This document shows, in pieces, positions 1 to 63,400 of a stretch of DNA of 64,000 nt. This DNA comes from OCS155 cluster bacterium AG-349-E07 (GTDB lineage: Bacteria; Actinomycetota; Acidimicrobiia; Actinomarinales; Actinomarinaceae). Every line of letters begins with the position of its first letter. Positions within the stretch are counted from its first letter, which is position 1. The notes below the pieces were generated by a model. The model was not told the origin of the DNA, did not search any database, and was given only the letters and a program-made list of their open reading frames with translations. The position numbers and the translations under genes are program-made. The stretch is from contig QCCZ01000003.1 of assembly GCA_003281085.1 (NCBI GenBank), positions 8,386-72,385 of the forward strand. Direction: 5' to 3'.

Positions 1-1002
1 CAGGAACTTGAAAAAAAATTATTGGAAGATTCAGAATTTAAACTTTTGTGGGATCAATTTAACGAAAAAAACATAGCAAATATAAATACAGCTCTTAGTG
101 AAAAGAAAGCAACACGTGTAGCTGGTAGTGAAGTCCTAAAAGATATTGGTAAGTCTAATAAGTTTATACTAGGTGGATCAGCAGACTTAGCGGCATCAAC
201 AAAGCAGATTATTTCTGATGCAGTTTATTCGTCTGATAATCAAACTGGACAAGTTCTTGAATATGGAGTCAGAGAACATGCTATGGCTGCAATTACTAAC
301 GGCATAACCCTCCACAGCTCATTAATTGGGTTTGGGTCAACGTTCTTGGTATTTTCAGATTATATGAGGCCAAGCATAAGGCTTGCTGCATTAATGGAAT
401 TAAACTCTGTTTTTATATTTACGCATGATTCTATTTATCTAGGAGAAGATGGACCTACACACCAACCAATAGAGCATCTTATGTCACTAAGACTTATACC
501 TGGTGTTGACGTGATAAGACCTTCGAACAGTAAAGAAATAGTATATTCATATCAATACATATTTTCAAAAACAAATAATCCAAAAGTTTTAGTTTTAACG
601 AGACAAAATATTGACTATTTAGAGACCAACACTTCTTACGAAGATTTTAAAAAAGGGTATTATGAATTAGCTCATGGAACTGATGCGACAATTTTTGCTT
701 CGGGATCAGAAGTCAATCTTGCTATAGAAGTTAGTAAGTTGTTAAAAGAAAAATCAATACAGATAATTAGTACCCCGATACTAAATAAATTGAAACCAGA
801 GTTAATCGAATCTCTAGGTATTAATAATAAAGTTTTCACTATTGAGTTAGGAAGATCGATAGGTTGGCAAGATTATGTAGGACCAGTAACAAAAAGTTTT
901 AGCATAGATACCTTTGGGGCTTCAGCGCCAATTGATCAGTTAGAAGATAATTTCAATATGGAAGCTAAAAAAATATCTCAACAGATTTTAGATTTATTAT
1001 AA
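1..1002 (+). CDS. tkt: Transketolase, C-terminal portion (the 5' end lies upstream of the window)
   Basis: The frame is open from nt 1, and the track M at 22 is an internal TTG. The transketolase signature LGEDGPTHQPIEHL is present. Stop codon at 1000-1002. Confidence 0.9.
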   Translation, partial: QELEKKLLEDSEFKLLWDQFNEKNIANINTALSEKKATRVAGSEVLKDIGKSNKFILGGSADLAASTKQIISDAVYSSDNQTGQVLEYGVREHAMAAITNGITLHSSLIGFGSTFLVFSDYMRPSIRLAALMELNSVFIFTHDSIYLGEDGPTHQPIEHLMSLRLIPGVDVIRPSNSKEIVYSYQYIFSKTNNPKVLVLTRQNIDYLETNTSYEDFKKGYYELAHGTDATIFASGSEVNLAIEVSKLLKEKSIQIISTPILNKLKPELIESLGINNKVFTIELGRSIGWQDYVGPVTKSFSIDTFGASAPIDQLEDNFNMEAKKISQQILDLL

Positions 1003-22941: not shown

Positions 22942-25536
22942 TTGAATTTATTTAAAAAAGCACTTTCAGTTGGTAGTGGGAAGTTAACTTCTGAGCTAAA
23001 TGGGATTGTTGAAGAGATAAATAAAAAAGAACAATCTTTTGAAAAATTATCCGATGAAGAAATAAAAACTAATTTTCAGAATCTTTCCGAAAAAATTGTT
23101 GATTCACCATCAGATATTGAGGTAGAAGCATTTGCGTATATAAGAGAGGCTGCAAAAAGAACACTTAATCAAAGACATTATGATGTTCAACTATTTGGAG
23201 GACTGGTTCTTCTTAGAAATAAAATATCTGAGATGAAAACTGGTGAAGGTAAAACTCTTGTTTCAACCTTGCCGATCTCTTTAATGGCTTTATATAAAAA
23301 AGGCGTTCATGTTGTAACAGTCAATGAATACCTCGCAAAAAGGGACGCAGAGTGGATGAGCCCAATTTATAATTTTTTAGGTCTTGAAGTAGGCCTGATT
23401 TATTCAAATCAAGATTATGAAGAAAAGATTGAAGCATACAAAAAAGATATTACATATGGTACCAACAATGAATTTGGTTTTGATTACCTCAGAGACAACA
23501 TGGCAATTTCAAGTGAACAACTAGTTCAAGGAGATTTGTTTTACAGTGTTATTGACGAGGTAGATTCGATACTAGTTGACGAAGCAAGAACTCCTTTAAT
23601 TATCTCTGGCAAGATAAGTGATTCAACAAAATGGTACACAGAGTTCACCAAGATTGTAAAAGGAATGAAAAGAGATGTTCACTATGATATTGATGAAGCT
23701 AAAAAACAAGTCCATCCCACGGAATTAGGTATTGAGTATGTAGAGTCAAAACTAGGTATCTCAAACTTATACGAAAACTCTCAGACAAACTTTATTCATT
23801 ATTTAACAGCATGTCTGAGAGCTAAAACAATATTTGCTAAAGATGTAGATTATATTGTCTCAAATGGCCAAATTAATATTGTTGATGAATTTACTGGAAG
23901 AGTACTTGAAGGACGGAGGTATTCAGACGGATTACATCAAGCATTAGAAGCTAAAGAAAATGTGAGAATTCAAGATGAAAATCAAACACTAGCATCAATA
24001 ACTTATCAAAACTATTTCAGAATGTATGAAAATTTGGCAGGAATGACTGGTACTGCAAAAACTGAAGAAGAAGAGTTTATTCAAATATACAATCTTGAGG
24101 TTGTTGAAATTCCTACCAACCTACCGATACAAAGAATGGATCAACAGGATGCTGTATATAAAACGAATGAAGCAAAACTGAACGCAGTTATTGAAGATAT
24201 TATTGAAAGAAACAAAAAAGGACAACCAATCTTATTGGGAACTGTATCTGTTGAAGCTTCAGAAGAAGTATCTAAACAATTAACTAGTAAAGGTATTGTG
24301 CACAATGTTTTAAATGCAAAAAATCATGAACAGGAAGCGCAAATTATTGCACAGGCGGGAAGATTAGGTGCGGTTACAGTTGCGACAAACATGGCTGGTA
24401 GAGGTGTAGACATAAAACTAGGAGGAAATCCTGAGGATATGGCAGTTCAGCAACAAATAAATGAAAATAAATTAGACGATCCAATGTATTTAGATTCAAA
24501 GATTAATGAGTTGGAGTTACAAGTAGTTGAAGAAAAAAATAAAGTTTTAGAACTTGGTGGATTGTATGTTTTAGGTACAGAGAGGCACGACTCAAGAAGA
24601 ATTGATAATCAGCTAAGAGGAAGATCTGGCAGGCAAGGTGACCCTGGAGAGTCAAGATTCTATATTTCACTTCAAGATGATTTAATGAGAAGATTTCAAG
24701 GTGAAAGAATTGAATCAATAATGAATAAACTGAATCTTCCAGATGAAGAACGAATAGAACAATCAATGGTTACTAAAAGTATAGAAAGAGCTCAAGCTCA
24801 GGTTGAATCACTCAATTTCGAAATCAGAAAAAATGTACTTAAATTCGATCAAGTTCTAAATCAACAAAGAGAAGTTATTTACAAATGGAGAAGACAGCTT
24901 CTTAGGTCAGACAGTATTGAAAATCTAATTTCGGAATGGTTTGATGATGTTGTCAGCACAATTTCAAATAATATTGAACTACATAAAAAAAATTATGAAA
25001 ACTTAGAGCATTTTAACCAATTAATTTCTGATGAACTAAGTAATTTATTAAGTGATGGAGTTAAAAAAGAATTTGTAAGAAATATCGAAATCAATGATCA
25101 ATTGCAAATTGACCATGAGCTGGAGAATCTTTTTAATAATAATGAATCACAAGACTCTGATACATTTTGGAAATTAGCAAGAGGTTCATCTTTATCATTT
25201 GTTGACCAATCCTGGAAGGATCATTTAGCTGAAATGGACTATTTAAGATCTGGAATTGGACTAAGGGCAATGGGTCAAAGAGATCCGCTTGTTGAGTATC
25301 AAAATGAGGGATATACACTTTTTGAGGATTTAATAGAGAATGTTAAATTTTCAGTAATCAGAATTCTTATGAATTTTGATAAAAGTTTTATCATACAAAA
25401 TGAAGAAAATAAGGATAATGTAAAGACTACACAAATAATTAAAGATAAGATTGGTAGGAACGATCCTTGCTATTGTGGTTCAGGTATAAAATATAAAAAA
25501 TGCGGAATGGTTGATAAATGTATAAAGAAATCTTAA
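22942..25536 (+). CDS. secA: Preprotein translocase ATPase SecA
   Basis: MKTGEGKT Walker A, DEVDSILVDEARTPLIISG, and the C-terminal zinc motif CYCGSGIKYKKC. I placed the start at TTG 22942, just after the ahcY stop. The track start at 22918 remains possible. Confidence 0.9.
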   Translation: MNLFKKALSVGSGKLTSELNGIVEEINKKEQSFEKLSDEEIKTNFQNLSEKIVDSPSDIEVEAFAYIREAAKRTLNQRHYDVQLFGGLVLLRNKISEMKTGEGKTLVSTLPISLMALYKKGVHVVTVNEYLAKRDAEWMSPIYNFLGLEVGLIYSNQDYEEKIEAYKKDITYGTNNEFGFDYLRDNMAISSEQLVQGDLFYSVIDEVDSILVDEARTPLIISGKISDSTKWYTEFTKIVKGMKRDVHYDIDEAKKQVHPTELGIEYVESKLGISNLYENSQTNFIHYLTACLRAKTIFAKDVDYIVSNGQINIVDEFTGRVLEGRRYSDGLHQALEAKENVRIQDENQTLASITYQNYFRMYENLAGMTGTAKTEEEEFIQIYNLEVVEIPTNLPIQRMDQQDAVYKTNEAKLNAVIEDIIERNKKGQPILLGTVSVEASEEVSKQLTSKGIVHNVLNAKNHEQEAQIIAQAGRLGAVTVATNMAGRGVDIKLGGNPEDMAVQQQINENKLDDPMYLDSKINELELQVVEEKNKVLELGGLYVLGTERHDSRRIDNQLRGRSGRQGDPGESRFYISLQDDLMRRFQGERIESIMNKLNLPDEERIEQSMVTKSIERAQAQVESLNFEIRKNVLKFDQVLNQQREVIYKWRRQLLRSDSIENLISEWFDDVVSTISNNIELHKKNYENLEHFNQLISDELSNLLSDGVKKEFVRNIEINDQLQIDHELENLFNNNESQDSDTFWKLARGSSLSFVDQSWKDHLAEMDYLRSGIGLRAMGQRDPLVEYQNEGYTLFEDLIENVKFSVIRILMNFDKSFIIQNEENKDNVKTTQIIKDKIGRNDPCYCGSGIKYKKCGMVDKCIKKS

Positions 25537-26622
25537 GCAAAGTTAATACCTTTTATGAAAGATTGATTTCTGCGAAGGAGTATCTTTGACTTTGAAAACA
25601 AAACAAAGAAGCTTGATCAATTAAATCTTGAAATAAATCAAAAAGGTTTCTGGGACAATCCGCAGTATGCCCAAAAGGTATCAATTGAAGCTTCTACTAT
25701 AGAAAAATTGATAACGTCTTTAAGTAGTTTAGAAAATGATCTCAAAGAGCTTAAAGAATTAATTGAACTTACTGAAGAAGAAAATATCAATGAAGAAGAC
25801 TATCAAGATGAAATAAATAAATTAGAAAATATGATTGAGGAGATTGAAGACGAAGCGCTTTATTTCGATAAGTATGATGACTTGAATGCAGTTTTGACTA
25901 TTAATGCAGGCGCTGGTGGAGTTGATGCTCATGACTGGGCTGAGATGCTTTTAAGAATGTATACAAGACACCTTTCAAGTAATAATATAGATCATCAAAT
26001 TGAAGAAATATCTCAGGGGGAAGAAGCGGGAATTAAGTCAGCATCTATAAGAATCAATGGATTTAGAGCATATGCAAATTTAGAGAGTGAAAGAGGAGTT
26101 CATAGATTAGTAAGAATTAGCCCTTTTGATAGTAATAAAAGAAGACACACTAGCTTTGCTGGAGTAGATGTAATTCCTTTAATCGAAAATAATGACGAAA
26201 TTAATATCCAAGATGATGAAATAAGAATTGATGTTTATCGATCTTCTGGAGCAGGAGGACAGCATGTAAATACTACAGATTCAGCTGTACGAATTACACA
26301 TAATGCTACTGGAATAGTTGTGGCTTGTCAGGCAGAAAGATCTCAGCTTCAAAATAAAACAAGAGCATTAGAACTTTTAAAGACAAAATTATTATTAAAA
26401 AAAAGAGAAGATGAATTGAAAAAATTGAATGAAATAAGAGGGGATCAGCACGAGGCTGGATGGGGCAGGCAAATTAGGTCTTATGTACTTCAACCATATC
26501 AGCAAGTAAAAGATTCTAGAAACAGTATTGAAGTAGGCAATGTACAGAATGTTCTTGATGGAGATATTTCCATATTTATTAAAGAGTACCTAAAATGGCG
26601 TAGACAGGGAATAAATGATTAA
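25518..26622 (+). CDS. prfB: Peptide chain release factor 2, requiring a +1 programmed ribosomal frameshift
   Basis: Frame 0 starts at ATG 25518 and gives MYKEILSKVNTFYERLISAKEYL, then an in-frame TGA at 25587-25589. The +1 frame from 25588 reads DFENKTKKLDQLN... and joins track ORF 25708..26622. SPF and GGQ motifs are present. Confidence 0.9.
25576..25590 (+). promoter_or_regulatory. RF2 autoregulatory frameshift site: internal Shine-Dalgarno-like AGGAG, 3-nt spacer, CTT TGA C
   Basis: AGGAGTATCTTTGAC has the same architecture as the E. coli prfB site (SD-like element, UAU, CUU UGA C). Confidence 0.85.
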
Positions 26623-34305: not shown

Positions 34306-35451
34306 CTAATCATCAAAATTGGCTTTTATAATTTCGTAAATTGGCCAACCATATGGAACACATCCATCAGTACCTTTACTTTGTTGCATCATTAATGGTG
34401 CAATTGCACCTTCTTTTGGACAACTTGTGTGTCCCCAGCCTAGAATATGGCCAGTTTCATGATTGATAAGATACAATCTGTAAGTTTCTAAATCTCTTAA
34501 AAAATCTCTAGCACCATTTTTCCATCTAAAGTCATTGATAACTATCTCTCTTTCATTTCTACATGAATATATCCCATTTGTTTGCAAAGGGTAACAAAGT
34601 TCGTCAGTAGTTTCAGGAGAAGCAAATATATATACGAAATCACTATCTTCAACATTTGTGTGATAGAAGCCTTTATCAGTAATGTTTATCCAGCCTTTTT
34701 CATGATTCAATATCAAATCCAATAACTTTTTTATGCACTCATGGTCGATATTTAAAGAAGACTCAACCTTTATTCCAAAATTAAACTTTTTGTCATCTCT
34801 TGTATTTATAGTTTCAACTTCAATAAGTTCAGGATTCTCTATAGGATCTTCTAAATTCTCTAGATAACAACCGTTTTTTAGATCTTCTGTTTCCAACTCT
34901 TTAGATTTTGTAACTGATTCGTCCGATAAAAATATAGATGTAATATTTTCATCTTGATTTTCTTTGATTCTTATTACTTCCTCAACTTCTTTTAATTGTG
35001 ACGTAAAGAAATTTACTTTCTCATTAATTGTTAAAGTTGAAACAATATACAAAAATGTATCTTCATCTATATTGGCATAATTATTTTTAAAATAATTCAA
35101 AGTGTATTCATAATGTTCAATATAAGCATCTCTTTTACTATCGATAATTTTTAATGAATTTTCCCATTCTGAAAGACACTCTCTTGTTAAGCTGAACCAA
35201 TTTCCTGTTATGTAACATAAGTCACTTATAGACTCCAGAGAAGATGTTGTTTCTTTTTCAAAATCAAAACTTGGATAAGCATATTTTTCGATTTTAACTA
35301 CAGGTGTTGTTGTTGTGGTAGCTTCAAATAATGTTGTTTGAGTTACTTCTACACTCTCTTCAGAATCATTATTGTTAAAGAAGTTTATTCCAACTACACT
35401 TACGGAAATTAAAAATACAAAAAGGAGTAAGCCTTTAGTGTTTTGTTGCAT
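34306..35451 (-). CDS. Secreted metzincin-like zinc protease (DUF3152-like)
   Basis: N-terminal TM/signal sequence, a Thr-rich linker (TTTTTP), and HETGHILGWGH, which matches HExxHxxGxxH. Confidence 0.7.
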   Translation of the reverse strand: MQQNTKGLLLFVFLISVSVVGINFFNNNDSEESVEVTQTTLFEATTTTTPVVKIEKYAYPSFDFEKETTSSLESISDLCYITGNWFSLTRECLSEWENSLKIIDSKRDAYIEHYEYTLNYFKNNYANIDEDTFLYIVSTLTINEKVNFFTSQLKEVEEVIRIKENQDENITSIFLSDESVTKSKELETEDLKNGCYLENLEDPIENPELIEVETINTRDDKKFNFGIKVESSLNIDHECIKKLLDLILNHEKGWINITDKGFYHTNVEDSDFVYIFASPETTDELCYPLQTNGIYSCRNEREIVINDFRWKNGARDFLRDLETYRLYLINHETGHILGWGHTSCPKEGAIAPLMMQQSKGTDGCVPYGWPIYEIIKANFDD

Positions 35452-35491
35452 ATGTATATGTTAAAAGTACTTTAAATTCTTACAAGGTACT

Positions 35492-36052
35492 TTATTTTTT
35501 ATAACCTTTTTCGTCAATAAATTCCTCAGGCTCTAAACCAAGTCCATCGGCAACTCTATTGATGTAATTAAAGTAGGAAATTACTTGAACTATTTCTGAT
35601 ATTGCTTTGTCATCAAAATTATTTTTTTGTAATTCTTTGTAATCAAATTGTGTTATTTCACCCGGTTTCAAAGTCAATTTTTCCGCAAAATTGCATAAAG
35701 CGATTTGTTCTTTTGTTAAGCTACTTTTTTTCCAATCATTAGCAATCTCATCAACTAATTTTTGGTCTTTTGTCTCCGACCGGAGATCATATAAATGTGC
35801 TCGAATTCAATATTCGCATTCATTGGAAATTGAGGTGATTACTGCAAGTAATTCTCTATCAAAACGAGATATCTCTAAATTTCCAAACATTGTTGAATTA
35901 TATAATCGCATTGAATCTCTTAAAATTTCTGGGGTTTGAGATTGAATAGTCAGTATGTTCCAAATTCTCCCAGCTCTTCTCAAGCCTTTCTCGTACTCTT
36001 TTTTAAGAAGACCAGTAGAGTCCTTAAATTTGAACAATTTAATAAATGCCAT
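35492..36052 (-). CDS. AhpD/carboxymuconolactone-decarboxylase-family peroxidase-related protein with an in-frame TGA at the CxxC site (candidate selenoprotein; the alternative is a very recent pseudogene)
   Basis: Track ORFs 35807..36052 and 35492..35677 share one frame. The read-through gives ...RELLAVITSISNECEY-TGA-IRAHLYDLR...FAEKLT...YINRVADGLG, about 186 aa. The TGA is at 35807..35809 on the complement. Confidence 0.7.
35773..35786 (-). promoter_or_regulatory. Candidate bacterial SECIS apical hairpin
   Basis: The mRNA forms UCUCC-GGUC-GGAGA starting about 20 nt 3' of the in-frame UGA. It is locally G+C-rich and is built from codons uncommon in this genome (CUC CGG UCG GAG). Confidence 0.4.
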
Positions 36053-36082
36053 ATTAATAATTTTTACTTAAAATAAGGGTGT

Positions 36083-36526
36083 ATGCAACTTCCTAATGAA
36101 CTTAAGCAAGCAATTGATAACAATGCTTTTTGTGCATTATCAACAAAAATCAATGAAAAAGAGATCCAGAATCATTTAATGTGGGTTGATTACAAAGATA
36201 ATAAAATTCTTATCAATACAGAGCAAGGAAGAAAAAAAACAGTAAATATTAGGAAGGAACCAAATATTTCATTAGTTATATTTCATCCATCTGATATGTA
36301 TACATGTTGGGAGATAAGGGGCGTTGTTGGGAATATTGTTCAAGATTCAACTGCAAATGACCACATAGATTATTTATCAAATAGATATTCAGGTAAACCA
36401 TATGGTAGAACAAAAGATGTCACTTGGGAGCAAGCAGGATTCAAATCCAGAGAAATATGGGAAATAGATATTAATAAGGTTATATCTATGGTCAGCAGAG
36501 CTCAGGCAAAATCAGATTCAGAGTAA
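36083..36526 (+). CDS. Pyridoxamine 5'-phosphate oxidase-fold protein (probable F420/FMN-dependent PPOX class)
   Basis: 147 aa with a split-barrel-type sequence (ALSTKINEKEIQNHLMWVDY...ILINTEQGRKK). F420 biosynthesis genes are present in the window. Confidence 0.6.
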   Translation: MQLPNELKQAIDNNAFCALSTKINEKEIQNHLMWVDYKDNKILINTEQGRKKTVNIRKEPNISLVIFHPSDMYTCWEIRGVVGNIVQDSTANDHIDYLSNRYSGKPYGRTKDVTWEQAGFKSREIWEIDINKVISMVSRAQAKSDSE

Positions 36527-37146
36527 AACTTTAAAAAAGGATTGTTCTCAAAAGATTCCTGTTCTGCTCCTAGAAATTCTTTAATTAAATTTTCTGCATT
36601 TAATGAGATATCCCCACCTCTAGATTCGATGTGTCCTGATTTTCTAAATAAATCCTGAGGAATTTTTTTCATAAATCTTTTAAAGTTTTCCTCTGATATT
36701 CTTAGATACTTTGCAAGTGATAATTCTACTTTTATTGATTGTGGCAAGACATTGCAACTAAACACATATATAGAAGCAAACATAGCCCAATCTAACGGCG
36801 AGGGTCTTCTGCCTTTTTCAAAGACTGTAAAATCGTAATTAGGGAAAAATTTGTAAGGAGAGTAGGCTAATCCAGACTTGTCAGATAAAACTTTATAAAT
36901 ATATCGATCAAGTAACTTAATATCCATATTTGGAATGTTATTTTCAATTGTTAATTTACCAATTTGGAATTCACTCTCAGAAGGATGAATGACTAATTTA
37001 CAGATTACAATTTTTCCAAAATAGTTTTCTATTTCTACATCAAGTTGAATATTTTTTGGTATAAAAATTAACCCATCATTATCATTTGAATCAATTACCA
37101 CTTGTAATTGTTCGTTTAGTTCAAAGCTTTTGTTATTAATTTTCAT
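36502..37146 (-). CDS. Hypothetical protein
   Basis: 214-aa ORF with no recognisable motif. It fills the gap between the PPOX-like gene and ssrA. Confidence 0.5.
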   Translation of the reverse strand: MKINNKSFELNEQLQVVIDSNDNDGLIFIPKNIQLDVEIENYFGKIVICKLVIHPSESEFQIGKLTIENNIPNMDIKLLDRYIYKVLSDKSGLAYSPYKFFPNYDFTVFEKGRRPSPLDWAMFASIYVFSCNVLPQSIKVELSLAKYLRISEENFKRFMKKIPQDLFRKSGHIESRGGDISLNAENLIKEFLGAEQESFENNPFLKFYSESDFA

Positions 37147-37198: not shown

Positions 37199-37536
37199 GG
37201 GGGTGAACTGGCTTCGACTTTGAAGCGAGTCTCTCAGTAGCGAGTCGAGGGTCCTAGGGCCTCGTAAAAAACGTAGGAAAACAATATAACTGCCAAACCT
37301 AAGTTGGCTTTAGCAGCCTAACCGCTGCTCGTCACCTATCGGGGCTCCCACCTCGGATAGAAATGGCGTCGAAATGTGGGATGCTGAGTTGGGTTACCGA
37401 CTGACTCTTAAGATTTAGGTAAACCTGTTAGGTTATAGGTTCCGATGACTTGCCTGACAGTAAAACATCGGATGCACTCGGAGAAGCTGTTTGATAGCTT
37501 GGAAGGACCGGGGTTCGACTCCCCGCACCTCCACCA
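37199..37536 (+). ncRNA. ssrA: tmRNA (SsrA)
   Basis: The 5' GGGGGUG pairs with the 3' CACCUCC, including the G3:U alanine identity pair. T-arm GGGGTTCGACTCCCC, discriminator A and encoded CCA. The tag ORF is GCC AAA CCT AAG TTG GCT TTA GCA GCC TAA (37292..37321), ending ...KLALAA. The resume-codon choice is tentative. Confidence 0.92.
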
Positions 37537-54370: not shown

Positions 54371-54411
54371 AAATAAAGTTGTTGTGTGTGATAAATAAAT
54401 ATTATTTTATA

Positions 54412-57400
54412 TTGTGTTGTCTTAGAGTAAGGTCGTTTTTTCACGCCATCAACTATAAAAAAATCACAACAACTACACTCCATGTCCTTCTGTTTGTAAT
54501 AATGTTTATCTCTTCTTGGGCCACACCTCAAGAAGAAGCGTACGCAAATGAAATATGGGCATGTAACGACTCTTCAGAGAGAGCGTATTTCTATAAACTT
54601 GACTGGGAGTTTACTGACAACTTTTTTACAATCTCTCAATATGTTGCAACATCAACATCGACAGTTAACTTAGATGAGACCCAAGTCAGTTTATCTGGAT
54701 TAACGGTCGGGGGAACAAGCATAACTGGTGTAAAAGGTATTAATGGTTTGGCCATGTCACCTACTGGAAAGATGTATGTAACAATCACATCTTCAGCAAA
54801 CGGTACTGATCTTTTCCAAATTAATACTGATGGTTCACTTACACACTTAAAAAATATGGGATCGTATGGAACTATTGGGCAGTTGGATTTCTATCAGCTA
54901 CCAGGTGGTGGTGGACACTACGGTTTCTCATCTGGTGAGTATGTCTCAAAAGATGGCATAGACAGAATTTATTTCTCACAGGGTGCCTTTGATACTGACT
55001 CTGATGGAAATGGTTCAGATATAGCACGACCAAATTCAAATATGATCTACAACGTATCAAACGGTACAACAACTACCTTTCCAGACCCAGGTTTCGTCAG
55101 CCCAATTAATGCTGCTGACTATGCCTATGTAGGGGACTGGGATGGATATGAGTTGGTAACATATGATGCAATCAATAACAAAATACATAGATTTGATATT
55201 GATAATCCATCAAGCTCTTCTTCAGTCGATCCACAAACAAGTGCGTTTTCTGGAGCAAGTACTGTACTCTCAGCATTCTCTTATAAAACACCCGAGGGTG
55301 AGATTCGATTTATTGTAGATGACACAAACGGTATGCGTTTTGAGATTGTAAGAAATGGAACAAATAACTATAGCGTTACACAAAAAGGAAGCTCTTTCTT
55401 AACAAACAACTCTGATGGTGCCTCTTGTGGACCTAATGCATTTGATCCATTTTCACCAACATTTAAAGCCACTCTCTCAGCATGTTCAAATGGTTTTGCA
55501 ACACCACAACTTAAAATCACAAACAACAAATCAAGCACACAATACTTTGATGTAGATGTAAGCGTAGATGGAGGTTCGTTTACGAGTCTTGTAGATGGAC
55601 AGTCGGTGGCTCCTGGTAATGACGTAACGCTCTCGGCCAATCCGGAATATGACGGCAGAACAATACAATTCCGTATGCGCTACAACTCATCTAATCCAAG
55701 TAATTTTGCAACTTCCTACAATGTAGGTTCACTATTAACTGTCAGTGGTTGTGGAAACTATACCTTAGCTACTGGTTCTGTTGCAACTGCAAATGGAACA
55801 TGTTTAGGTGATGGTACATCAAAGCCCACAATTACTCTTACAGCAACTGGTAACACGACAGTATTTTTTGATGTTGAGTACAAAGTCGGAAGTAGTGCTT
55901 GGCAGGCATTAAAAGACGGTGAGCAAGTTGCTGTTGGTTCACCAGAGACATACGAGATAACGTCAGCCGTAGCACACAACTCTTCGGTTACATTTAGGTA
56001 TATTGTTGGAGCGAGCAATCCATCTGGCACGGATTGGACAGAGACGTCTAGTGTATCTGTTAACTGTCCTGTGTACAGTATGACTGCAAGTCTAAATTCA
56101 CCTTCATGTACAAATAATCAACCATATAAGCTCTACACATTGACAATTCAAAATACAGGTAATCAACCTGCTTATGCTCACATTCAAGGAAATATAAATC
56201 AACAGGGTCAAGCCGGAACTTTAAATTGGATTGATAGTTCTAGATATATTAGTGGTGGTTCGACAACTACTGTTAGTTTTCAAATGTGGCATGGTGTTAC
56301 ACCAGATATTCGTTGGATTTACACTACTACTTCGTCAGGATATAATCTTTTAACAAGTGGTGTTAACGGATCTTATACATCTAATTCAAATTATGGATCC
56401 TATGTTAAATCTGGGGATTCCTATCTGACACTCACTGACTCAGAGGTAGACTGTTTCTATGTAGGTAATGGTGGTTCCTCTAATAACTCAAGTAGCAACT
56501 ATAGCAATACGTCAAAAACTATATCACAGGTTTGTGATGCTCAGGGAAGTGCTATTGCAAGATTTACAATTACACAAAGAGATTCAGCGAACGATAGCTT
56601 TAATGGTTTTATTGATGTTGATTACTCAACAAATGGTTCAACGTGGTCAACTCTGGCTGATGGTGTAGCATTTAATGATGGAGTAACGTTAACCTACGAC
56701 TCACCATCTACATTGTCCTCGGGATCTACTGCGTATTTTAGATTTAGAATTGACGATACAGATCCTGATAGTACAGCAGCATGGGGTATCTATACCCAAG
56801 ATATAAATTGTCAGGCTGATTTTAATATTTCACAGGCAATAAGTTCATGCACGTCATCAGGTCAAACCTCAACACTTACCATTACAAATAATGAGTCTCA
56901 GACAATTTACTACAGAGCCGTACCATCAAAAATCAGTGCCGGGCCTTTAACATCAACACAGAGTAACTATGAGGATGATGATGTACAGCTATTTTCTATT
57001 GCTGCAAATACAACCTATACACACACTACAACAAAAACTTATACGTATGGTGTTGCAAGTAATATGTACTGGAGGGTTCAAGGTTCATTTACACAAAATC
57101 CTGATTGGACTAATACTACACTCCACAATAGAGTTCACACGGGTGTAGTCGCTACAGATTGTAATCCTTCAACTACAGCTACTTATGCAATGAGTACTTG
57201 TACTATCACAGGAAAAACATCAACGCTTACAATAACAAACAATGAGTCAGCAACAATCTATGTCAGGGTTCAGCCATCAGAGGATAAACTCACAACAACA
57301 AGTTATCAGGACTCTTCCTATTATGACACTTCACCAGCACCAATTGTTTATGCCATACCTGCAAATACGACAGTAACGTATGATGCAAGTGCTAGGCCTG

Positions 57401-60400
57401 GATTTCAAGAAACCTACTCATCAGACTCCGGCCAAGTTTATTGGGCTCACTGGAGATATCAAGTTTCCTATGTTGAAAATGTAAGCTGGCAGGCTCAAGC
57501 ATTTCCTTACGTCTATGTAAGTAGAGCAAGAAATGCGGGTGATATCTCAAGTGGTTCGTATCAAATTGATTGCAATAGATATGAGACTAGCCCAACCACA
57601 TCGAATTTTTACCAATATCAATTTGAAGACAATACACACCCAAATGCCTGTATAAATGATTCAGCTTGGGTGACAAATGAGTTTTACGATACTGCTTACA
57701 ACAACAACGCAGATTACAACAAGATGTGGTGGATTTTTGAGTACTCAATCGATGATGGAAGTAACTGGTCAAATGCAAATATTTTTTACAGAAGACATGC
57801 GAATTCTAACACTTTAGATTCTGGCAATAACTTTAGATCTCCATCTTCACAACCCACAAATAATGGATGGACAGCAACTACAACTACAGGAACTCTTATT
57901 AATACTACTAACTATAGTTATAGATATTTTACTATCGGAACAAGAGTTGCCGATGGCTCCATTGTTAAATTGAGATATAAAAAGGCATTTACTCAAGCAG
58001 AATTGGCGAATGTAAATTACATAGAACTTGGCTCACAAAATAAATCACAGGCAGACAGAACTGCAGAATGTGATGTCGATTTAACAGATTTTATTGAGGG
58101 TAGTGGAGGTACTGATGTGACCGTAAATGGTACCGTCGTTTCCAATTTACTAACACAAGGTACCTGTCAAAACAATTCTAGTACTGGATATGCTGACACA
58201 CTATTTTCAATCAAATCAGATTCTGGATCAGCTATATATTACATGAAGTTAGAGAAAAAAGTTGATGGAGCTAATGACTGGACAACGGTTTACTCAAATT
58301 ATCAATTAAATGCTAACTCATTACTTCAAGAATCTGTACAGCTTAATCATGGACAAACCATTCAATACAAACTACATCTCTCACCAGATACTGGAGACTT
58401 TTCGAATGCGACTGCATATACCACACCAGTTCTGACAGTTAACTGTCCAAGTACTGGTGCACAGTTAGTTTTTGCATTAGGAGACTGTGTATCTGGTGGG
58501 AATAAACCTACAGTAACAATAACGAATACTGGCTACCTGACAGCCCATTACGATGTCGATTACTCCATTGATCAAGGCAGCAACTGGCTTGATGCATTTG
58601 GTGCAGATGTATATCAAACTGTTCTACCAGGTGAAACAAGTACATTTACCTTTACGCCAACTATCACACAGGGTCAGACTGTGACTTTAAAATACAGGCA
58701 TGCTCCAACATCACCAGTTAGTTCAGGTGCATTCACAACAGTGAATAACACAATCCTTGTTGATTGTGATGTTAATGCAACTATAGGCGATGTGTTACAA
58801 GTATCTACAGCAGCAACATGTTATGGAGGAAATCAGCGATTTAAGGTCAAAGTAGATAATGATGAAACTACTTCAATACAGCTTCAGTATAGAGCTTCAG
58901 AAGATGGAGGTACCTCTTGGCCACATACAGGAAGTGTTACTGTAAACGCATCTTATGACAACTATGTAACAATACCTGTCGATTTTCAACACGGTGAAAG
59001 CATAACATTTGAGCTCAGAACAGAACTTACACCAACATCTTCATACACCACATATACTACAAAAGGTCCTTTTACAGTTGATTGTTCTGTTGACAATTAC
59101 CTAGCATTTACAGCAACGTATGACGGATGTTCCTCAATGGGACCTGATATATTGGAATTTAGAGTAGCTAAATCATCTGGAAATATTCCAGGTGCAAATT
59201 ATTACCAGTATTTACACTTTGATATTGAGATTTCTCACGATGGTAATACATGGAATCCATTCGGACCATGGATCAAAAATCATCTCAATAATAATAACTA
59301 CATGTCTAATAGTTATTACAACGCAAGTTATCCAAGTCACTCAGGGTTTATTGATGTGGGTACTTATTCTGGTAGCAATGCCTATTGGAGTGCATATCAT
59401 TTCACAGACTCTACTCACGATTACAAAATACGTTATCGATACTACAACTCTACAAGTTCAGGTCATGACCATGCTTCTTTAGCAAATCTTCCGTGGACTG
59501 TAATGGATGTAGATAAAGATTTAGGTTGTGAATCAAATGATATTGAACCAGTCACTTTAGTTTCTACACAACAACAATGTCAGGAAAATAGAGGAAAAGT
59601 TGAGTTTACATTTACTGATACTACCGTTTCACATAATACCCCTTACGAAGAGGCAACATTAATTTATAGATACTCAACAAATGGAGGAACGACGTACTCG
59701 GCTCATCAGAAAGCATATCTGAATAACACGACTTCGTTTTTGCTTCCCGATAATACAACATTACCAAACACCACAGTAATTACTGTTCAGTGGGGATACA
59801 TTAGAGATTTTAACAAATTAAGTTCTTATTTTGACCATATTGGCACAACGGACAAAAACGGTCTTTATACGAGAATGCCAACTAGTTCTCAAAATAATAA
59901 TGACACCACTTTGTCAACAAACTTCAGAACAGTAGTATATGAAAATACTACTAATATCTCTGTAGACTGTGATCCTGATTCTACATATTCGCAGACTGTA
60001 ACTGAGTGTGTGTGTAGTGATGGTGGTGCTAATTCAACATTAACTATTAATAATAACGAAAACTATACAACCTATTACAAGGTTATGTATTCATTGGATG
60101 GTGGCTTAACATGGCAGTACTCTAATCCGAATATTGAGTCGGCTTACGACATATCGGTTGCGGCGGGGGCCCAAGACTCATCGCAGACAGTATTTGTACC
60201 TGATGGACAAACAATTACGTGGAGAATAAAAGACACTACTAATGGTGGTGACTTTGTTGGTCAAGACTGGGAATCTGTAGATGCAAGCGAGACTGTTGAC
60301 TGTGGTTGTTCTGGTGGTGTTGTAGATCTTACTCTTGGTTCTTGTGGAAATGGTGCTGCTACACCAACAGTAACTTTGGATGTGAATTCCACAGATACAA

Positions 60401-63400
60401 CATATTTCAAGATTGAGTACAAGAGAAGTACTGACAGTGATTGGGTAGTGTACAGAGCACAGGAAACTGTTACGGGTGGTAATGATGCTCAGTTACAGTT
60501 AAATGTTACTGTTCCTCACTCTGCGTCTATTCAAGTTAGATATAGAATCAGCAAAAGCACTTCTACATTAGCAACTGCAGATTTAAAGTATACCGATACA
60601 TTGATGGTTGACTGTCCATTTAACACAGTTTCGTTTACTCCAAATGCACCAGTTTGTACCACAAACAACGTGCAACAACCAAACCTTACTGTGGTTAATA
60701 CAACATCATCGACATCGGCAGCTTATGTAAGAGTTCAATATAAAATTATCACCACTGCAACAGAAGGAGAATTATCATCTGGTACATGGGTAAATACCTC
60801 TCTATTCGATGATCTCCTTCCAGCAAATGGAGCACCATATATTACTGCAGACTCGATAAATGTCGCTGAAGGCCAAAAAATAGTCTGGAGATATGAATGG
60901 TCATATACCTCAACTTTTACAGGTAATTGGACGTATGACAACACTGCTTCATTTGTCAATTGTGTGACCAATTTTACGGTTACTCAATCACTTGGTGTTT
61001 GTACTAATGGTGTCAAAGCGTCAACACTTACAATAACTAATAACGAAACATACGGAACTTTATATTTCAAGGTCGAAAGGTCCTTTAACGGTACTAACTG
61101 GGAAGTTGTTGATTCAACTATTGAGATTAATCACTCGAGTAATCTAAATATCACACCAATAGATGTTCAACATACACAAAGAATATATTGGAGAGTAACT
61201 GCATCAACAGTTCAAAATAATTTTGGAGCTGCATATTCAACAACTGCAGATGTAGTGCAGTCTGATATAGTTGATTGTCCAGTTGTTGGAGGAACAGTTG
61301 AATTCACATTAGGTAACTGTGTCGCTGGAGCACAACAAGCCACACTTACACTAAAAAACCCAGTTTCATCAAATGACAATACATGGTTTCATATTCGATA
61401 CTCAGTAGATGGTGGCAACAACTACCAAACCATAGTTGAGGATGTACAGCCTGGTCAGCAAGAGACAAGAAACGTCTCTGTACCATCTGGTCAGAGACTT
61501 AAAGTAGAATATTATCCACATACTCAAGTAGCAAGTCCTTCAGGGGTATCTTATATTGAACTTACTGATAGTGCTGTTTCTGATTGTACTTTTGACACTA
61601 TTCAATCATTATCAATGGGCGAATGTGATACAAACGGTCAGGCTACAGCTACTTATGTAATCCAAAACAATACAGGTACAGATCTACGTTACAAGATTCA
61701 ATACAAAATTCAAGGTGAGAGTGGATTTACAACCCACACAGCTGATCTTCTTGTAAGTGCTAATTCCTCGGCAAGTCCATTTACACAATCTGTTCCTTCA
61801 GGAAAATATATTGAGTGGAGATATGCTGTATCAGATGATCAAAATACACTGGCAACAGCCCCAGCCCAAGCAGCTTTACAATCAACTGCAGTAAATTGTG
61901 ACATTATTGATCCAAGTTTCTTAATATCACAAGGGTCATGTAGAGACGGAACCAAAGAAGGTTACTTCTTTGCAAAGAATGGCGCTTCTGCAACATCGGA
62001 TGTATATTTTCAAGTTGAATCAAAAGTTAACGGAGGTGCGTGGACATCTGAAAACACAGTAATTGTTGCGCCTAATTCTCAAGTGCAAATTCAAAAACCA
62101 AATCTTACAAACACTGATACGATTCAGTGGAGATATAAGACTTCCAAGGACAACGTTACCTTCTCAACAAACTATCAAGAAACAACTGTAATGACAATTT
62201 CATGTACATCACAAAATGAAGTTGATGGTTCAATTGGAAACACATGTGCATCTAATGGTTCTAAAACCGCAACAGTCACATCAGTAAATAACAGTTCTTC
62301 AGACGTATATTATTTGATCGAGTATGCACTCGAACAAAATCCTTCAAACTGGTTATCAGTTACAGACAGTTTTGGATTACCAACTCAGGGAAGTAAAGAT
62401 GATCTTGTCAACCTACCAGAGGGTAGTTACTTTACCTTAAGGTATAAGACTTCTACTAGTAATAGCTTTACAGGTGTTGAGTATAAAACTTTAGAAACTT
62501 TGGGACCAGTTAATTGTTCAGGTGATATTGAAGTAAGAGTTGCATTAGACGCGTGTGTTGATGGTACGAGAAATTCAGTATTTTATTACCGCAATAGAGC
62601 AAGCACAGGGGCACCAGCATTTTTTGAAATTGAATATCAAATCGATGGTGGAACATGGACTAATCCAAAAGGCGCACAGACAAATAATTACTATACAGCT
62701 ATACAGAATGGTGTAGAAGAATCTGTTTCAGTTTCGGTACCTTCAGATTCTACAATTTCGTGGAGATATAAAGATACACTATCTGTGAATGCTTTATCAA
62801 CAAAATCATTCGAATTGGCAACACCCACTCCTTTGTCGGTATTATGTGGGGGTCTTCTTGAACACACAGTTGCAATTGGATCTTGTGTCGACAGAAAAGC
62901 CTCATCAACACTTACTTTGAAAAATGTTGGCTCTGTTGATGTGTATGCGGATATTTGGATTAGTTATGATGGTGGAAATTCATGGAATAACCATGCAATA
63001 AGCCAGAAAGTTACAACGACTGCTGATAAGGTATTTACTCAAAACAACATTGCGAATGGATCAATTGTTAAGTGGAAGTACAAGTATGCCAGTACAGCTA
63101 CAGGTGTTTCAAGTGCTGATGAAGTAACAACGGAGGACAAAACCGCAATTAATTGTGATGAAATAGTTATTAGCCAATTAACTTATGAACATAGTTTCGC
63201 TAATTGTGTAGAGGGACAAAGGATTGGAACCTTTAAAATTAACAATCCTTCAACAACAAACAATATTGTTTATGTAGAAGTGCAATATAGAACAAAGTCA
63301 TCTCTAAATGGTACTTGGTCAGGCTATACGACAATGCCTATCGAGGCAATCAATGCTGGGTCCTTTAAAGAATTTAGCGCACCTGCTTTAAATGCTAATG

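Follow-up and report, generated by a model that had tools for sequence, protein, structure and literature searches.

A probable selenoprotein gene of Candidatus Actinomarina: an in-frame UGA in the CxxC motif of an AhpD-like enzyme and a putative SECIS hairpin downstream

In the 64,000-nt stretch of genomic DNA analysed here (the window), two minus-strand open reading frames are separated by a single TGA, at the site where a family of redox enzymes carries a catalytic cysteine, which raises the question of whether this triplet is a selenocysteine (Sec) codon, a sense codon of another kind, or a stop within a broken gene. The two frames are in fact one, as the sequence-only reading of this locus had stated. 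The coding sequence is complete and occupies 35492..36052 on the minus strand, from an ATG at 36052-36050 to a TAA at 35494-35492, and it translates without a frameshift into 186 sense positions including Sec82. The one internal TGA (35807..35809, minus strand) is codon 82 and occupies the second redox site of the motif C79-x-x-U82; its local context reads ...SISNECEY-TGA-IRAHLYDLRSET.... With Cys placed at 82, the protein scores 134.2 bits against TIGR01926 (cut-off 81.8; residues 16-176 of 186 covered) and 30.9 bits against Pfam CMD (cut-off 23), so the family match claimed earlier over about 186 residues stands above the curated threshold. The PcaC (gamma-carboxymuconolactone decarboxylase) model gave no match at E <=0.01, the matching models being the generic Pfam CMD and the AhpD-type NCBIfam models. 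Residues 16-176 also match PDB 6K40 (E 7.6e-25), and sequence matches to five solved AhpD-like structures fix the fold. Judged by these matches, the gene belongs to the TIGR01926/COG2128 'AhpD-like' family, which is catalogued among the selenoprotein families with a CxxU motif (PMC13188914, PMC1088965, PMC2398784).

The proton relay of AhpD consists of Glu118/Cys130/His132/Cys133/His137 in the Mycobacterium tuberculosis enzyme and of Glu36/Cys48/Tyr50/Cys51/His55 in PA0269 (PMC3141380). In the present protein, the spacing read from the translation places all five relay positions in the segment E67-x11-C79-E-Y81-U82-x3-H86 (35795..35854, minus strand), where E67, C79, Y81, U82 and H86 follow the pattern E-x11-C-x-[HY]-C-x3-H and are invariant across 42 Actinomarina sequences. 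Sec82 thus corresponds to Cys133 of M. tuberculosis AhpD and to Cys51 of PA0269. In the alignments, C79-E-Y-U82 lies opposite CVYC of 6K40 and CYYC of 3C1L, and Cys is likewise found at the aligned site in 2OYO and 2PFX and in other Acidimicrobiia homologues annotated as 'peroxidase-related enzyme' (P0046-P0056), in agreement with the earlier assignment of the TGA to the second Cys of a CxxC motif. Sec82 stands at one of the two catalytic CxxC positions, that of the presumed nucleophile.

The window is about 96% identical at the DNA level over 20.6 kb to single-cell (SAG) contigs of Ca. Actinomarina, and orthologs of the gene at 72-99% identity are present in 41 Actinomarina species genomes. 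Codon 82 is TGA in all 48 aligned genomic sequences, the TGA-bearing genomes being those of 41 Ca. Actinomarina species and 6 Gemmatimonadota, and it is TGA again in 6 further metagenome orthologs, one of which comes from a Pirellulaceae MAG. Neither TGC nor TGT occurs at this codon in any of the 53 sequences, and Cys at site 82 is absent among orthologs of at least 70% identity. The 104 codons that follow the TGA contain no further stop or frameshift in any of the 53. Values of dN/dS are 0.066 before and 0.149 after the TGA, at a dS of about 1.3-1.6, which amounts to saturation at synonymous sites. Past the TGA, the C-terminal half contains SYFNYINRVADGLG, the block in which the family is most conserved. 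By these sequence measures, the half of the frame downstream of the TGA is under purifying selection. An alignment of orthologs had been proposed in the sequence-only reading, with relatives bearing TGC or TGT and a decaying local copy named as the outcome that would point to a young pseudogene; the alignment instead returned TGA in 47 genomes and 6 metagenome contigs, in a frame that is intact and selected.

These data bear directly on three readings in which no Sec is involved. If UGA were reassigned or leaky throughout the genome (code 4/25-like, read as Trp or Gly), the internal triplet would need no special explanation, and 51 database orthologs are indeed stored with W at site 82. The DNA beneath the stored W is nevertheless TGA, and the loci do not yield the stored protein under code 11; the W at this site is a product of gene calling under code 4, applied to short AT-rich contigs. 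In the window, moreover, 7 of the 41 long ORFs end in TGA, including the M23 peptidase gene, and for four of the six that were checked (prpD-like, tatD, rsmA and glmU) the end of the NCBIfam profile is reached at the terminal TGA. The gene for RF2, prfB (441 bits), is present with a UGA-dependent +1 frameshift site, CTT TGA C, at 25584-25590, and no long gene of the window other than the AhpD-like gene has an internal TGA. The view that TGA is a normal stop elsewhere in this DNA is thereby upheld. As UGA terminates genes, RF2 is present and the internal UGA is a single case, codon reassignment (table 4/25) was excluded, and what likelihood is left to it is close to nil. The use of TGA as an ordinary stop in this genome could equally be taken to favour a young pseudogene, in which a nonsense mutation has struck the catalytic Cys codon so that an 81-residue N-terminal fragment, or nothing, is made. 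Public records hold exactly such an 81-aa product, as 'hypothetical protein' or 'alkylhydroperoxidase family enzyme', on >1,400 contigs (P0139, P0140). This is at odds with the fixation of the same TGA in 41 Actinomarina species with saturated synonymous sites as well as in other phyla, with the undamaged state of the downstream codons at a dN/dS of 0.15, and with the location of the most conserved family block after the TGA; on sequence grounds, conservation effectively refutes the pseudogene, to which we give scarcely any credence. Another reading has two small proteins made, an N-terminal one of 81 aa and a C-terminal one re-initiated past the TGA, and gene callers do report C-terminal fragments whose start is L87, taken as M (P0066-68), or an internal TTG (35677). 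There is, however, no conserved start codon or ribosome-binding site after the TGA, the supposed starts are TTA, TTG or CTA Leu codons that vary among species, and the AhpD fold, with its relay residue H86, extends across the TGA junction, which makes a split product exceedingly improbable.

Downstream of the TGA the mRNA can form the hairpin UCUCC-GGUC-GGAGA (35786..35773, minus strand), a putative bacterial SECIS core made up of the 5-bp stem UCUCC/GGAGA and a GGUC tetraloop, for which conservation and covariation provide the evidence. It begins 20 nt after the TGA, the distance estimated earlier, and its loop occupies +29..+32, numbered from the U of the UGA, so that UGA and loop are 25 nt (+4..+28) apart. 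Shuffled sequence would be expected to contain the 12-nt core of the hairpin, CTCCGGTCGGAG, 0 times; the window has it once, and no second copy of the motif is found elsewhere in it. R91 is encoded by CGG, S92 by TCG and E93 by GAG in 42/42 Actinomarina sequences, and the codon of L90 is only ever CTC or CTT, a C-to-U change that retains a G-U pair; the other Arg and Ser codons of the gene are drawn from 3-6 synonymous codons. The hairpin codons had been called uncommon, and the counts agree: in the long ORFs of the window, Arg is encoded by CGG in 0.9% of cases, Ser by TCG in 4.5%, Leu by CTC in 4.9% and Glu by GAG in 24%. Stem pairing is intact in 96% of cells (36 distinct sequences), and compensatory changes from U-A to C-G and from C-G to U-A occur in the Gemmatimonadota and metagenome orthologs, so that two pairs covary; a third pair shows a wobble change. 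With rare codons frozen in all 42 Actinomarina sequences and pairs that covary between phyla, selection on the RNA hairpin, of which there had been a hint, is now shown by sequence comparison. A conserved peptide motif, D-L/F-R-x-E-V/T, dictates part of the hairpin, and a Cys-form homologue retains a degraded version of it at -3.5 kcal/mol.

The support for the hairpin derives from its conservation and not from its folding energy. The latter is -6.9 kcal/mol (ensemble -7.6) at a z of -0.67, and 40 of 200 shuffles fold equally well; the CUU variant reaches only -4.0 kcal/mol, and the hairpins of the GC-rich orthologs range from -6.8 to -11.4 kcal/mol. In a 63-nt segment of the window the global minimum-energy fold is a different one unless the ribosome-covered 5' part is removed, the hairpin becoming the minimum-energy fold when the first 15 nt are treated as covered. 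The predicted minimum-energy structure also offers, tentatively, an extension of the stem by G22-C38 and U21-A39 with a bulged A23 (35771..35789, minus strand). This lower stem was rejected on the grounds that its outer pair is not kept (column 21 is C in several species and column 39 varies) and that covariation is absent. Rfam searches returned no SECIS or other relevant family for the whole window at gathering thresholds, and only chance snoRNA-type matches, with no SECIS, for 35450-36100 at E <=10.

For comparison with the bacterial SECIS (bSECIS) consensus, we used the bSECISearch model as quoted in PMC13188914. In that quoted form, it allows 3-9 nt for the apical loop and 4-16 bp for the upper stem, ranges within which the 4-nt loop and 5-bp stem of the hairpin fall, and a distance of 16-37 nt from UGA to apical loop, which likewise includes the spacing observed in the window. 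The quoted model further expects G as loop nucleotide 1 or 2, with G or U as the usual next base. The GGUC loop fits this rule, as do the loops of the orthologs in other lineages (CGGGCC, CGGGAU, CGUGUU, CGUGCU, GUA and GUU), every lineage having a G in the first or second position and then G or U. On energy alone, the hairpin stays just short of the minimum free energy of -7.5 kcal/mol or lower given there.

The decoding of UGA as Sec presupposes a dedicated machinery. A preprint that is non-peer-reviewed and concerns related genomes reports selA, a divergent selB, selC and selD in 84/84 complete genomes of Actinomarina and puts the number of selenoproteins at about 5 per genome (bioRxiv 10.64898/2026.04.03.716425). 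The same report overtakes the remark in the sequence-only reading that no such proteins were known to it in streamlined marine actinobacteria, as Sec use in Actinomarina is now on record. In the window and 48 related loci, ARAGORN detected no tRNA-Sec but only tRNA-Gln and tmRNA; tblastn with Escherichia coli SelA, SelB and SelD gave no match in the window or in all flanks (about 20 kb, 47 loci), and none of the intergenic gaps of the window is large enough for another unannotated gene. In a protein search with E. coli SelD, the 120 matches listed were all from Enterobacterales.

A subtler alternative is that the UGA is recoded at this site, but not, or not always, with Sec. Cys could be carried on tRNA(Sec) at low selenium, Cys insertion via the Sec pathway being known in other systems, or the hairpin could stimulate near-cognate read-through to give a Cys, Trp or Arg enzyme. 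The minimal and weak hairpin would suit such a scheme, as would the Arg found at the site in two homologues (P0053, P0063) and open-ocean selenium concentrations, which are quoted in the preprint as sub-nanomolar to low-nanomolar (bioRxiv 10.64898/2026.04.03.716425). On the other hand, the homologues have a catalytic Cys at this position, the family is catalogued as one of CxxU selenoproteins, and the complete Sec pathway is reportedly kept by the lineage. Were Cys intended, TGC or TGT would also be the cheaper solution, and yet neither occurs among the 53 sequences. We therefore regard recoding with another amino acid as very unlikely, and favour, at a probability of roughly 0.93, a functional selenoprotein gene of Ca. 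Actinomarina in which UGA-82 is decoded as Sec by way of the small hairpin. The in-frame TGA is almost certainly a real Sec codon of a small antioxidant-type redox enzyme, and those checks suggested in the sequence-only reading that were carried out all spoke for Sec.

In the selenoprotein reading, a ribosome arriving at UGA-82 would meet mRNA that has just emerged and folded into UCUCC-GGUC-GGAGA, with the loop 25 nt past the UGA; we infer that SelB would bind here and that selenium would be incorporated. The product would be a 186-residue, all-helical AhpD-like thiol-selenol oxidoreductase with the redox pair C79/U82 inside a Glu-Cys-Tyr-Sec-His relay. Homology suggests that it most likely serves in peroxide or disulfide detoxification, either directly or through re-reduction of a peroxiredoxin, and that a dithiol donor, for example a lipoyl protein, probably supplies its electrons. 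A scan of ten ORFs in the vicinity showed no ahpC, prx or lipoyl-enzyme gene, and the neighbours, DUF3152 and a PNPOx-like gene, carry no functional clue. One Cys-form homologue of the Acidimicrobiia lies directly 3' of an E1-alpha/E1-beta/E2 2-oxoacid dehydrogenase operon, the sole lipoamide hint encountered.

As a selenoprotein the gene is correctly identified but ordinary, the family having been known from ocean metagenomes since 2005, and knowledge of the mechanism of selenoproteins or of AhpD-like enzymes is unchanged by it. Its value lies in the correction of a widespread annotation error, public records giving the gene either a length of 81 aa and the name 'hypothetical protein' or a code-4 translation that puts Trp in the active site, and in linking an ocean selenoprotein family that ranks among the most abundant to a named lineage with a streamlined genome that is itself very abundant. 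Of the selenoproteins that the preprint left uncharacterised, roughly five per genome, one can now be named, and a concrete putative SECIS is at hand for Actinomarina, where Rfam models fail, that could seed the search for other selenoprotein genes. More speculatively, the invariant 14-nt UCUCCGGUCGGAGA (5 bp plus GGUC) may represent a lineage-specific, near-minimal SECIS, short of the customary energy threshold, that the reportedly divergent SelB recognises largely by its sequence, and the AhpD-like protein may be both a principal reason that a genome of ~1.1 Mb keeps the whole Sec pathway and the source of much of the ocean 'AhpD-like 1' signal, a proposal that we consider possible but doubtful.

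Among known systems, the RNA element invites comparison with the E. coli fdhF SECIS, whose apical loop is GGUC and lies at about +22..25 from the UGA. Both form a stem-loop that lies inside the gene immediately 3' of the UGA and is capped by GGUC; here, however, the stem is 5 bp (7 with the bulged A), and on the fdhF numbering the loop is about 7 nt further from the UGA. For the protein, DR1765 of Deinococcus radiodurans (6K40) is the best match of solved structure, its NRCVYCAVSH aligning with NECEYUIRAH, although DR1765, from a different phylum, has Cys at the second position where Sec is found here. Knockout of DR1765 renders D. radiodurans H2O2-sensitive, and rescue needs the CxxC motif (PMC8945050). 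M. tuberculosis AhpD (Rv2429) shares the CMD/AhpD fold family, and its E-x11-C-x2-C-x3-H pattern maps to E67/C79/U82/H86. Its reductant is a lipoamide protein and its electron acceptor AhpC, and its identity to DR1765 is only 12% (PMC8945050). The present protein is likewise distant from it in sequence, no ahpC lies beside the gene in the window, and the middle relay residue is Tyr, as in PA0269, whereas that of M. tuberculosis AhpD is His. The closest likeness is to the marine 'AhpD-like' family (COG2128/TIGR01926, CxxU), which came to light in 2005 in the Sargasso Sea metagenome and was named 'AhpD-like 1' in the GOS survey of 2008 (PMC1088965, PMC2398784), in line with the earlier statement that Sec-containing AhpD-like proteins occur in marine surveys. 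The two share TIGR01926 membership (134 bits here), a CxxU motif with Sec second, a surface-ocean habitat and a small G-containing apical loop after the UGA, and nothing essential differs between them. The marine surveys dealt with reads without an organism, whereas here the gene is placed in Ca. Actinomarina, with TGA in 41/41 species genomes and a putative SECIS defined.

The AhpD-like gene (36052–35492, minus strand) is a single unbroken frame of 186 positions that begins with ATG, ends with TAA and carries one in-frame TGA, at codon 82 (35807–35809), with no frameshift, as the sequence-only reading had described it. Standard ORF calling splits this frame into pieces of 81 and 61 aa; the sequence around codon 82 is SISNECEY-TGA-IRAHLYDLRSET. 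With Cys placed at position 82 for profile scoring, the protein reaches 134 bits against TIGR01926 ('peroxidase-related enzyme', cut-off 81.8) and also matches the AhpD core domain and Pfam CMD, in agreement with the peroxidase-related CMD-like family proposed for it. Five solved AhpD-like structures match as well, most closely 6K40 (D. radiodurans DR1765, E 7.6e-25), and their CxxC aligns on C79/U82, which places the TGA at the second Cys of the redox motif, as had been claimed. Among Cys forms, the closest relatives are proteins of other Acidimicrobiia named 'peroxidase-related enzyme' (47–49% identity); they carry Cys where Sec stands here, but C79 is replaced by Thr. The candidate selenocysteine is supported by conservation of the TGA, by its pairing with Cys, and by selection on both the downstream frame and the hairpin 3′ of the TGA, and we regard the gene as a genuine selenoprotein gene with a probability of about 0.93. 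Two homologous database proteins (P0053 and P0063, ∼46–49% identity) have Arg instead of Sec (C-D-Y-R, C-H-Y-R); this codon, if CGA, differs from TGA by one base.

Scanning a single genome for each species recovered 48 loci, 41 from Ca. Actinomarina, OCS155 or Actinomarinales genomes (protein identity 72–99%) and six from Gemmatimonadota/Longimicrobiales (41–44%). The Actinomarina single-cell assemblies AG-410-M23 and AG-447-L16 are collinear with the window over 20.6 kb, with a DNA identity of 96%; G+C content is between 28 and 38%. A pseudogene, in which the TGA would be a disabling stop, is ruled out by these orthologs: TGA lies exactly at codon 82 in all 47 full-length genomic ones, none of which has another stop or a frameshift before the normal terminator, and six more from metagenomes show the same pattern, with an in-frame TGA and the frame otherwise open. 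Among the metagenome orthologs with TGA are a Pirellulaceae MAG and contigs with 45–67% G+C; in one distant metagenome form the TGA is codon 95. Moreover, the frame past the TGA is intact, and the family's best-conserved block, SYFNYINRVADGLG, lies in it. Synonymous sites are saturated among the Actinomarina sequences (median dS 1.3–1.6), and dN/dS is 0.066 before the TGA and 0.149 after it, so the downstream half is translated and under selection. Reassignment of UGA as a sense codon is likewise ruled out. TGA is a normal stop in the window, as stated before, terminating seven of its 41 long ORFs; in the prpD-like gene, tatD, rsmA and glmU the NCBIfam match runs to the end of the profile at the terminal TGA, TGA likewise closes the M23 peptidase gene, and no other long gene of the window has an internal TGA. 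In addition, prfB (RF2; 25518–26622, plus strand; TIGR00020 441 bits versus a cut-off of 370) retains the classical programmed +1 frameshift (site 25584–25590): its frame-0 leader starts with ATG at 25518, runs for 23 codons to an SD-like AAGGAG, and the autoregulatory site ...AAGGAG TAT CTT TGA C (25575–25590) precedes the shift into the main frame. As this device requires UGA to be read by RF2, it counts against reassignment. Only the 304-aa portion of prfB past the shift appears in an ordinary ORF listing.

The hairpin UCUCC-GGUC-GGAGA (35786..35773, minus strand) begins 20 nt past the TGA, and the earlier description of gene and hairpin was correct in each detail checked. Its evolutionary signal is strong, whereas its thermodynamic signal is weak (−6.9 kcal/mol, z = −0.67; 40 of 200 shuffles fold equally well). 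The window has a single copy of the 12-nt core, versus 0 expected from shuffles. Across 42 distinct Actinomarina sequences R91 CGG, S92 TCG and E93 GAG are invariant and L90 is only CTC or CTT, the C-to-U change retaining a G-U pair; elsewhere in the gene Arg positions use 4–6 synonymous codons and Ser positions 3–5. The codons are uncommon in this genome, as had been noted (CGG 0.9% of Arg, TCG 4.5% of Ser, CTC 4.9% of Leu), and a conserved peptide, D-L/F-R-x-E-V/T, dictates part of the hairpin sequence. The four core pairs are kept in practically every sequence that has the TGA, and the helix keeps its position across lineages. The covariation sought in relatives is present at two adjacent pairs (U-A becomes C-G in 10 sequences and, one pair on, C-G becomes U-A in three). 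In GC-rich lineages the stems are 6–8 bp, and the loops (CGGGCC, CGGGAU, CGUGUU, CGUGCU, GUA or GUU) invariably have G as the first or second nucleotide and G or U next. Judged by the bacterial SECIS model quoted in PMC13188914 (e.g. 16–37 nt spacing, −7.5 kcal/mol), loop size, stem length, loop G and spacing (25 nt) all agree, and the energy falls narrowly short. If the ribosome is taken to cover the first 15 nt past the UGA, the hairpin is the minimum-energy fold of the remainder. The closest Cys-form homologue (described below) retains a degraded hairpin (−3.5 kcal/mol), possibly left over from a Sec ancestor.

Neither tRNA-Sec nor selA, selB or selD is found in the window or in the flanks of any related locus. 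The preprint 'Actinomarina, resolved' (April 2026, bioRxiv 10.64898/2026.04.03.716425) reports selC, selA, selD and a divergent selB in 84 of 84 complete Actinomarina genomes, no selenouridine synthase, ∼5 predicted selenoproteins per genome and no significant matches to four Rfam SECIS models; its text and available supplement name no AhpD-like or peroxidase-related selenoprotein. SelB carrying Sec-tRNA(Sec) would bind the GGUC hairpin and insert Sec. Public annotation of the gene is wrong in two forms. The 81-aa piece stands as 'hypothetical protein' on >1,400 contigs (clusters P0139 and P0140, also named 'alkylhydroperoxidase family enzyme', cover at least 999 and at least 455 contigs). The other form (P0001–P0044) covers the whole frame but has Trp in the active site, and stems from code 4 calls on short AT-rich contigs. 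Where 51 database proteins store 'W' at the codon-82 position the underlying DNA is TGA, and code 11 translation of their loci does not give the stored protein; the 'W' is a product of code 4 gene calling.

The window neighbours (a DUF3152 protein, a PNPOx-like protein and tmRNA) give no clue to function. The selenoprotein gene and the PNPOx-like gene (36083–36526) diverge from start codons only 30 nt apart (gap 36053–36082), therefore the promoters must overlap neighbouring coding sequences; neither gene has an obvious upstream Shine-Dalgarno. A 214-aa ORF (36502–37146, minus strand, TGA terminator) without Pfam or NCBIfam match overlaps the PNPOx-like 3′ end by 25 nt. The tmRNA gene (37199–37536, plus strand; tag AKPKLALAA, in some species AKPKLAVAA or AKPKLAIAA) keeps a distance of ∼1.1 kb to the selenoprotein gene in 37 of 41 Actinomarina loci (near 8517–8860 in L002–L041), a conserved local synteny although extensive gene-order rearrangement within the genus is reported in the preprint. 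Further away, a giant ORF (54379–64000, plus strand; >3,207 codons, 36–38% G+C, above the rest of the window) continues past the right window end with no Pfam match for either half, a notable size for a ∼1.1 Mb genome.

The closest Cys-form homologue (L053 3001–3570, on a 2.64-Mb contig of an Acidimicrobiia MAG) reads T-R-Y-C, having lost the first Cys and kept that at the Sec position, and is possibly a Sec-to-Cys conversion. It starts 4 nt past a 2-oxoacid dehydrogenase E1-alpha/E1-beta/E2 (lipoyl) operon, which hints at a lipoyl donor or lipoyl-linked function. A dithiol donor would supply the electrons, and a C79/U82 selenenylsulfide may cycle while peroxides or oxidised peroxiredoxin are reduced. 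The Sec position corresponds to the second Cys of M. tuberculosis AhpD, presumably its nucleophile. Mycobacterial AhpD is lipoamide-dependent, and DR1765 knockout renders D. radiodurans H2O2-sensitive in a CxxC-dependent manner (PMC8945050).

The spacing E67-x11-C79-x-Y81-U82-x3-H86 is the same as in the proton relays of M. tuberculosis AhpD (Glu118, Cys130, His132, Cys133, His137) and PA0269 (Glu36, Cys48, Tyr50, Cys51, His55) (PMC3141380), so that Sec would take one of the two catalytic positions. As the sequence-only reading stated, marine surveys contain such proteins: the CxxU 'AhpD-like protein' (COG2128) was the most numerous new selenoprotein family of the Sargasso Sea (27 sequences; PMC1088965), and 'AhpD-like 1' ranked fourth in family abundance in GOS (299 sequences, 37 samples; PMC2398784). 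Reviews give the family as TIGR01926, CxxU (PMC9312934, PMC13188914), and the kind is therefore already known. The present addition is small, namely TGA in 41 of 41 recovered Ca. Actinomarina species genomes, a defined SECIS and the annotation error. The gene is a typical representative of an established family, and its lineage has recently been reported to use Sec.
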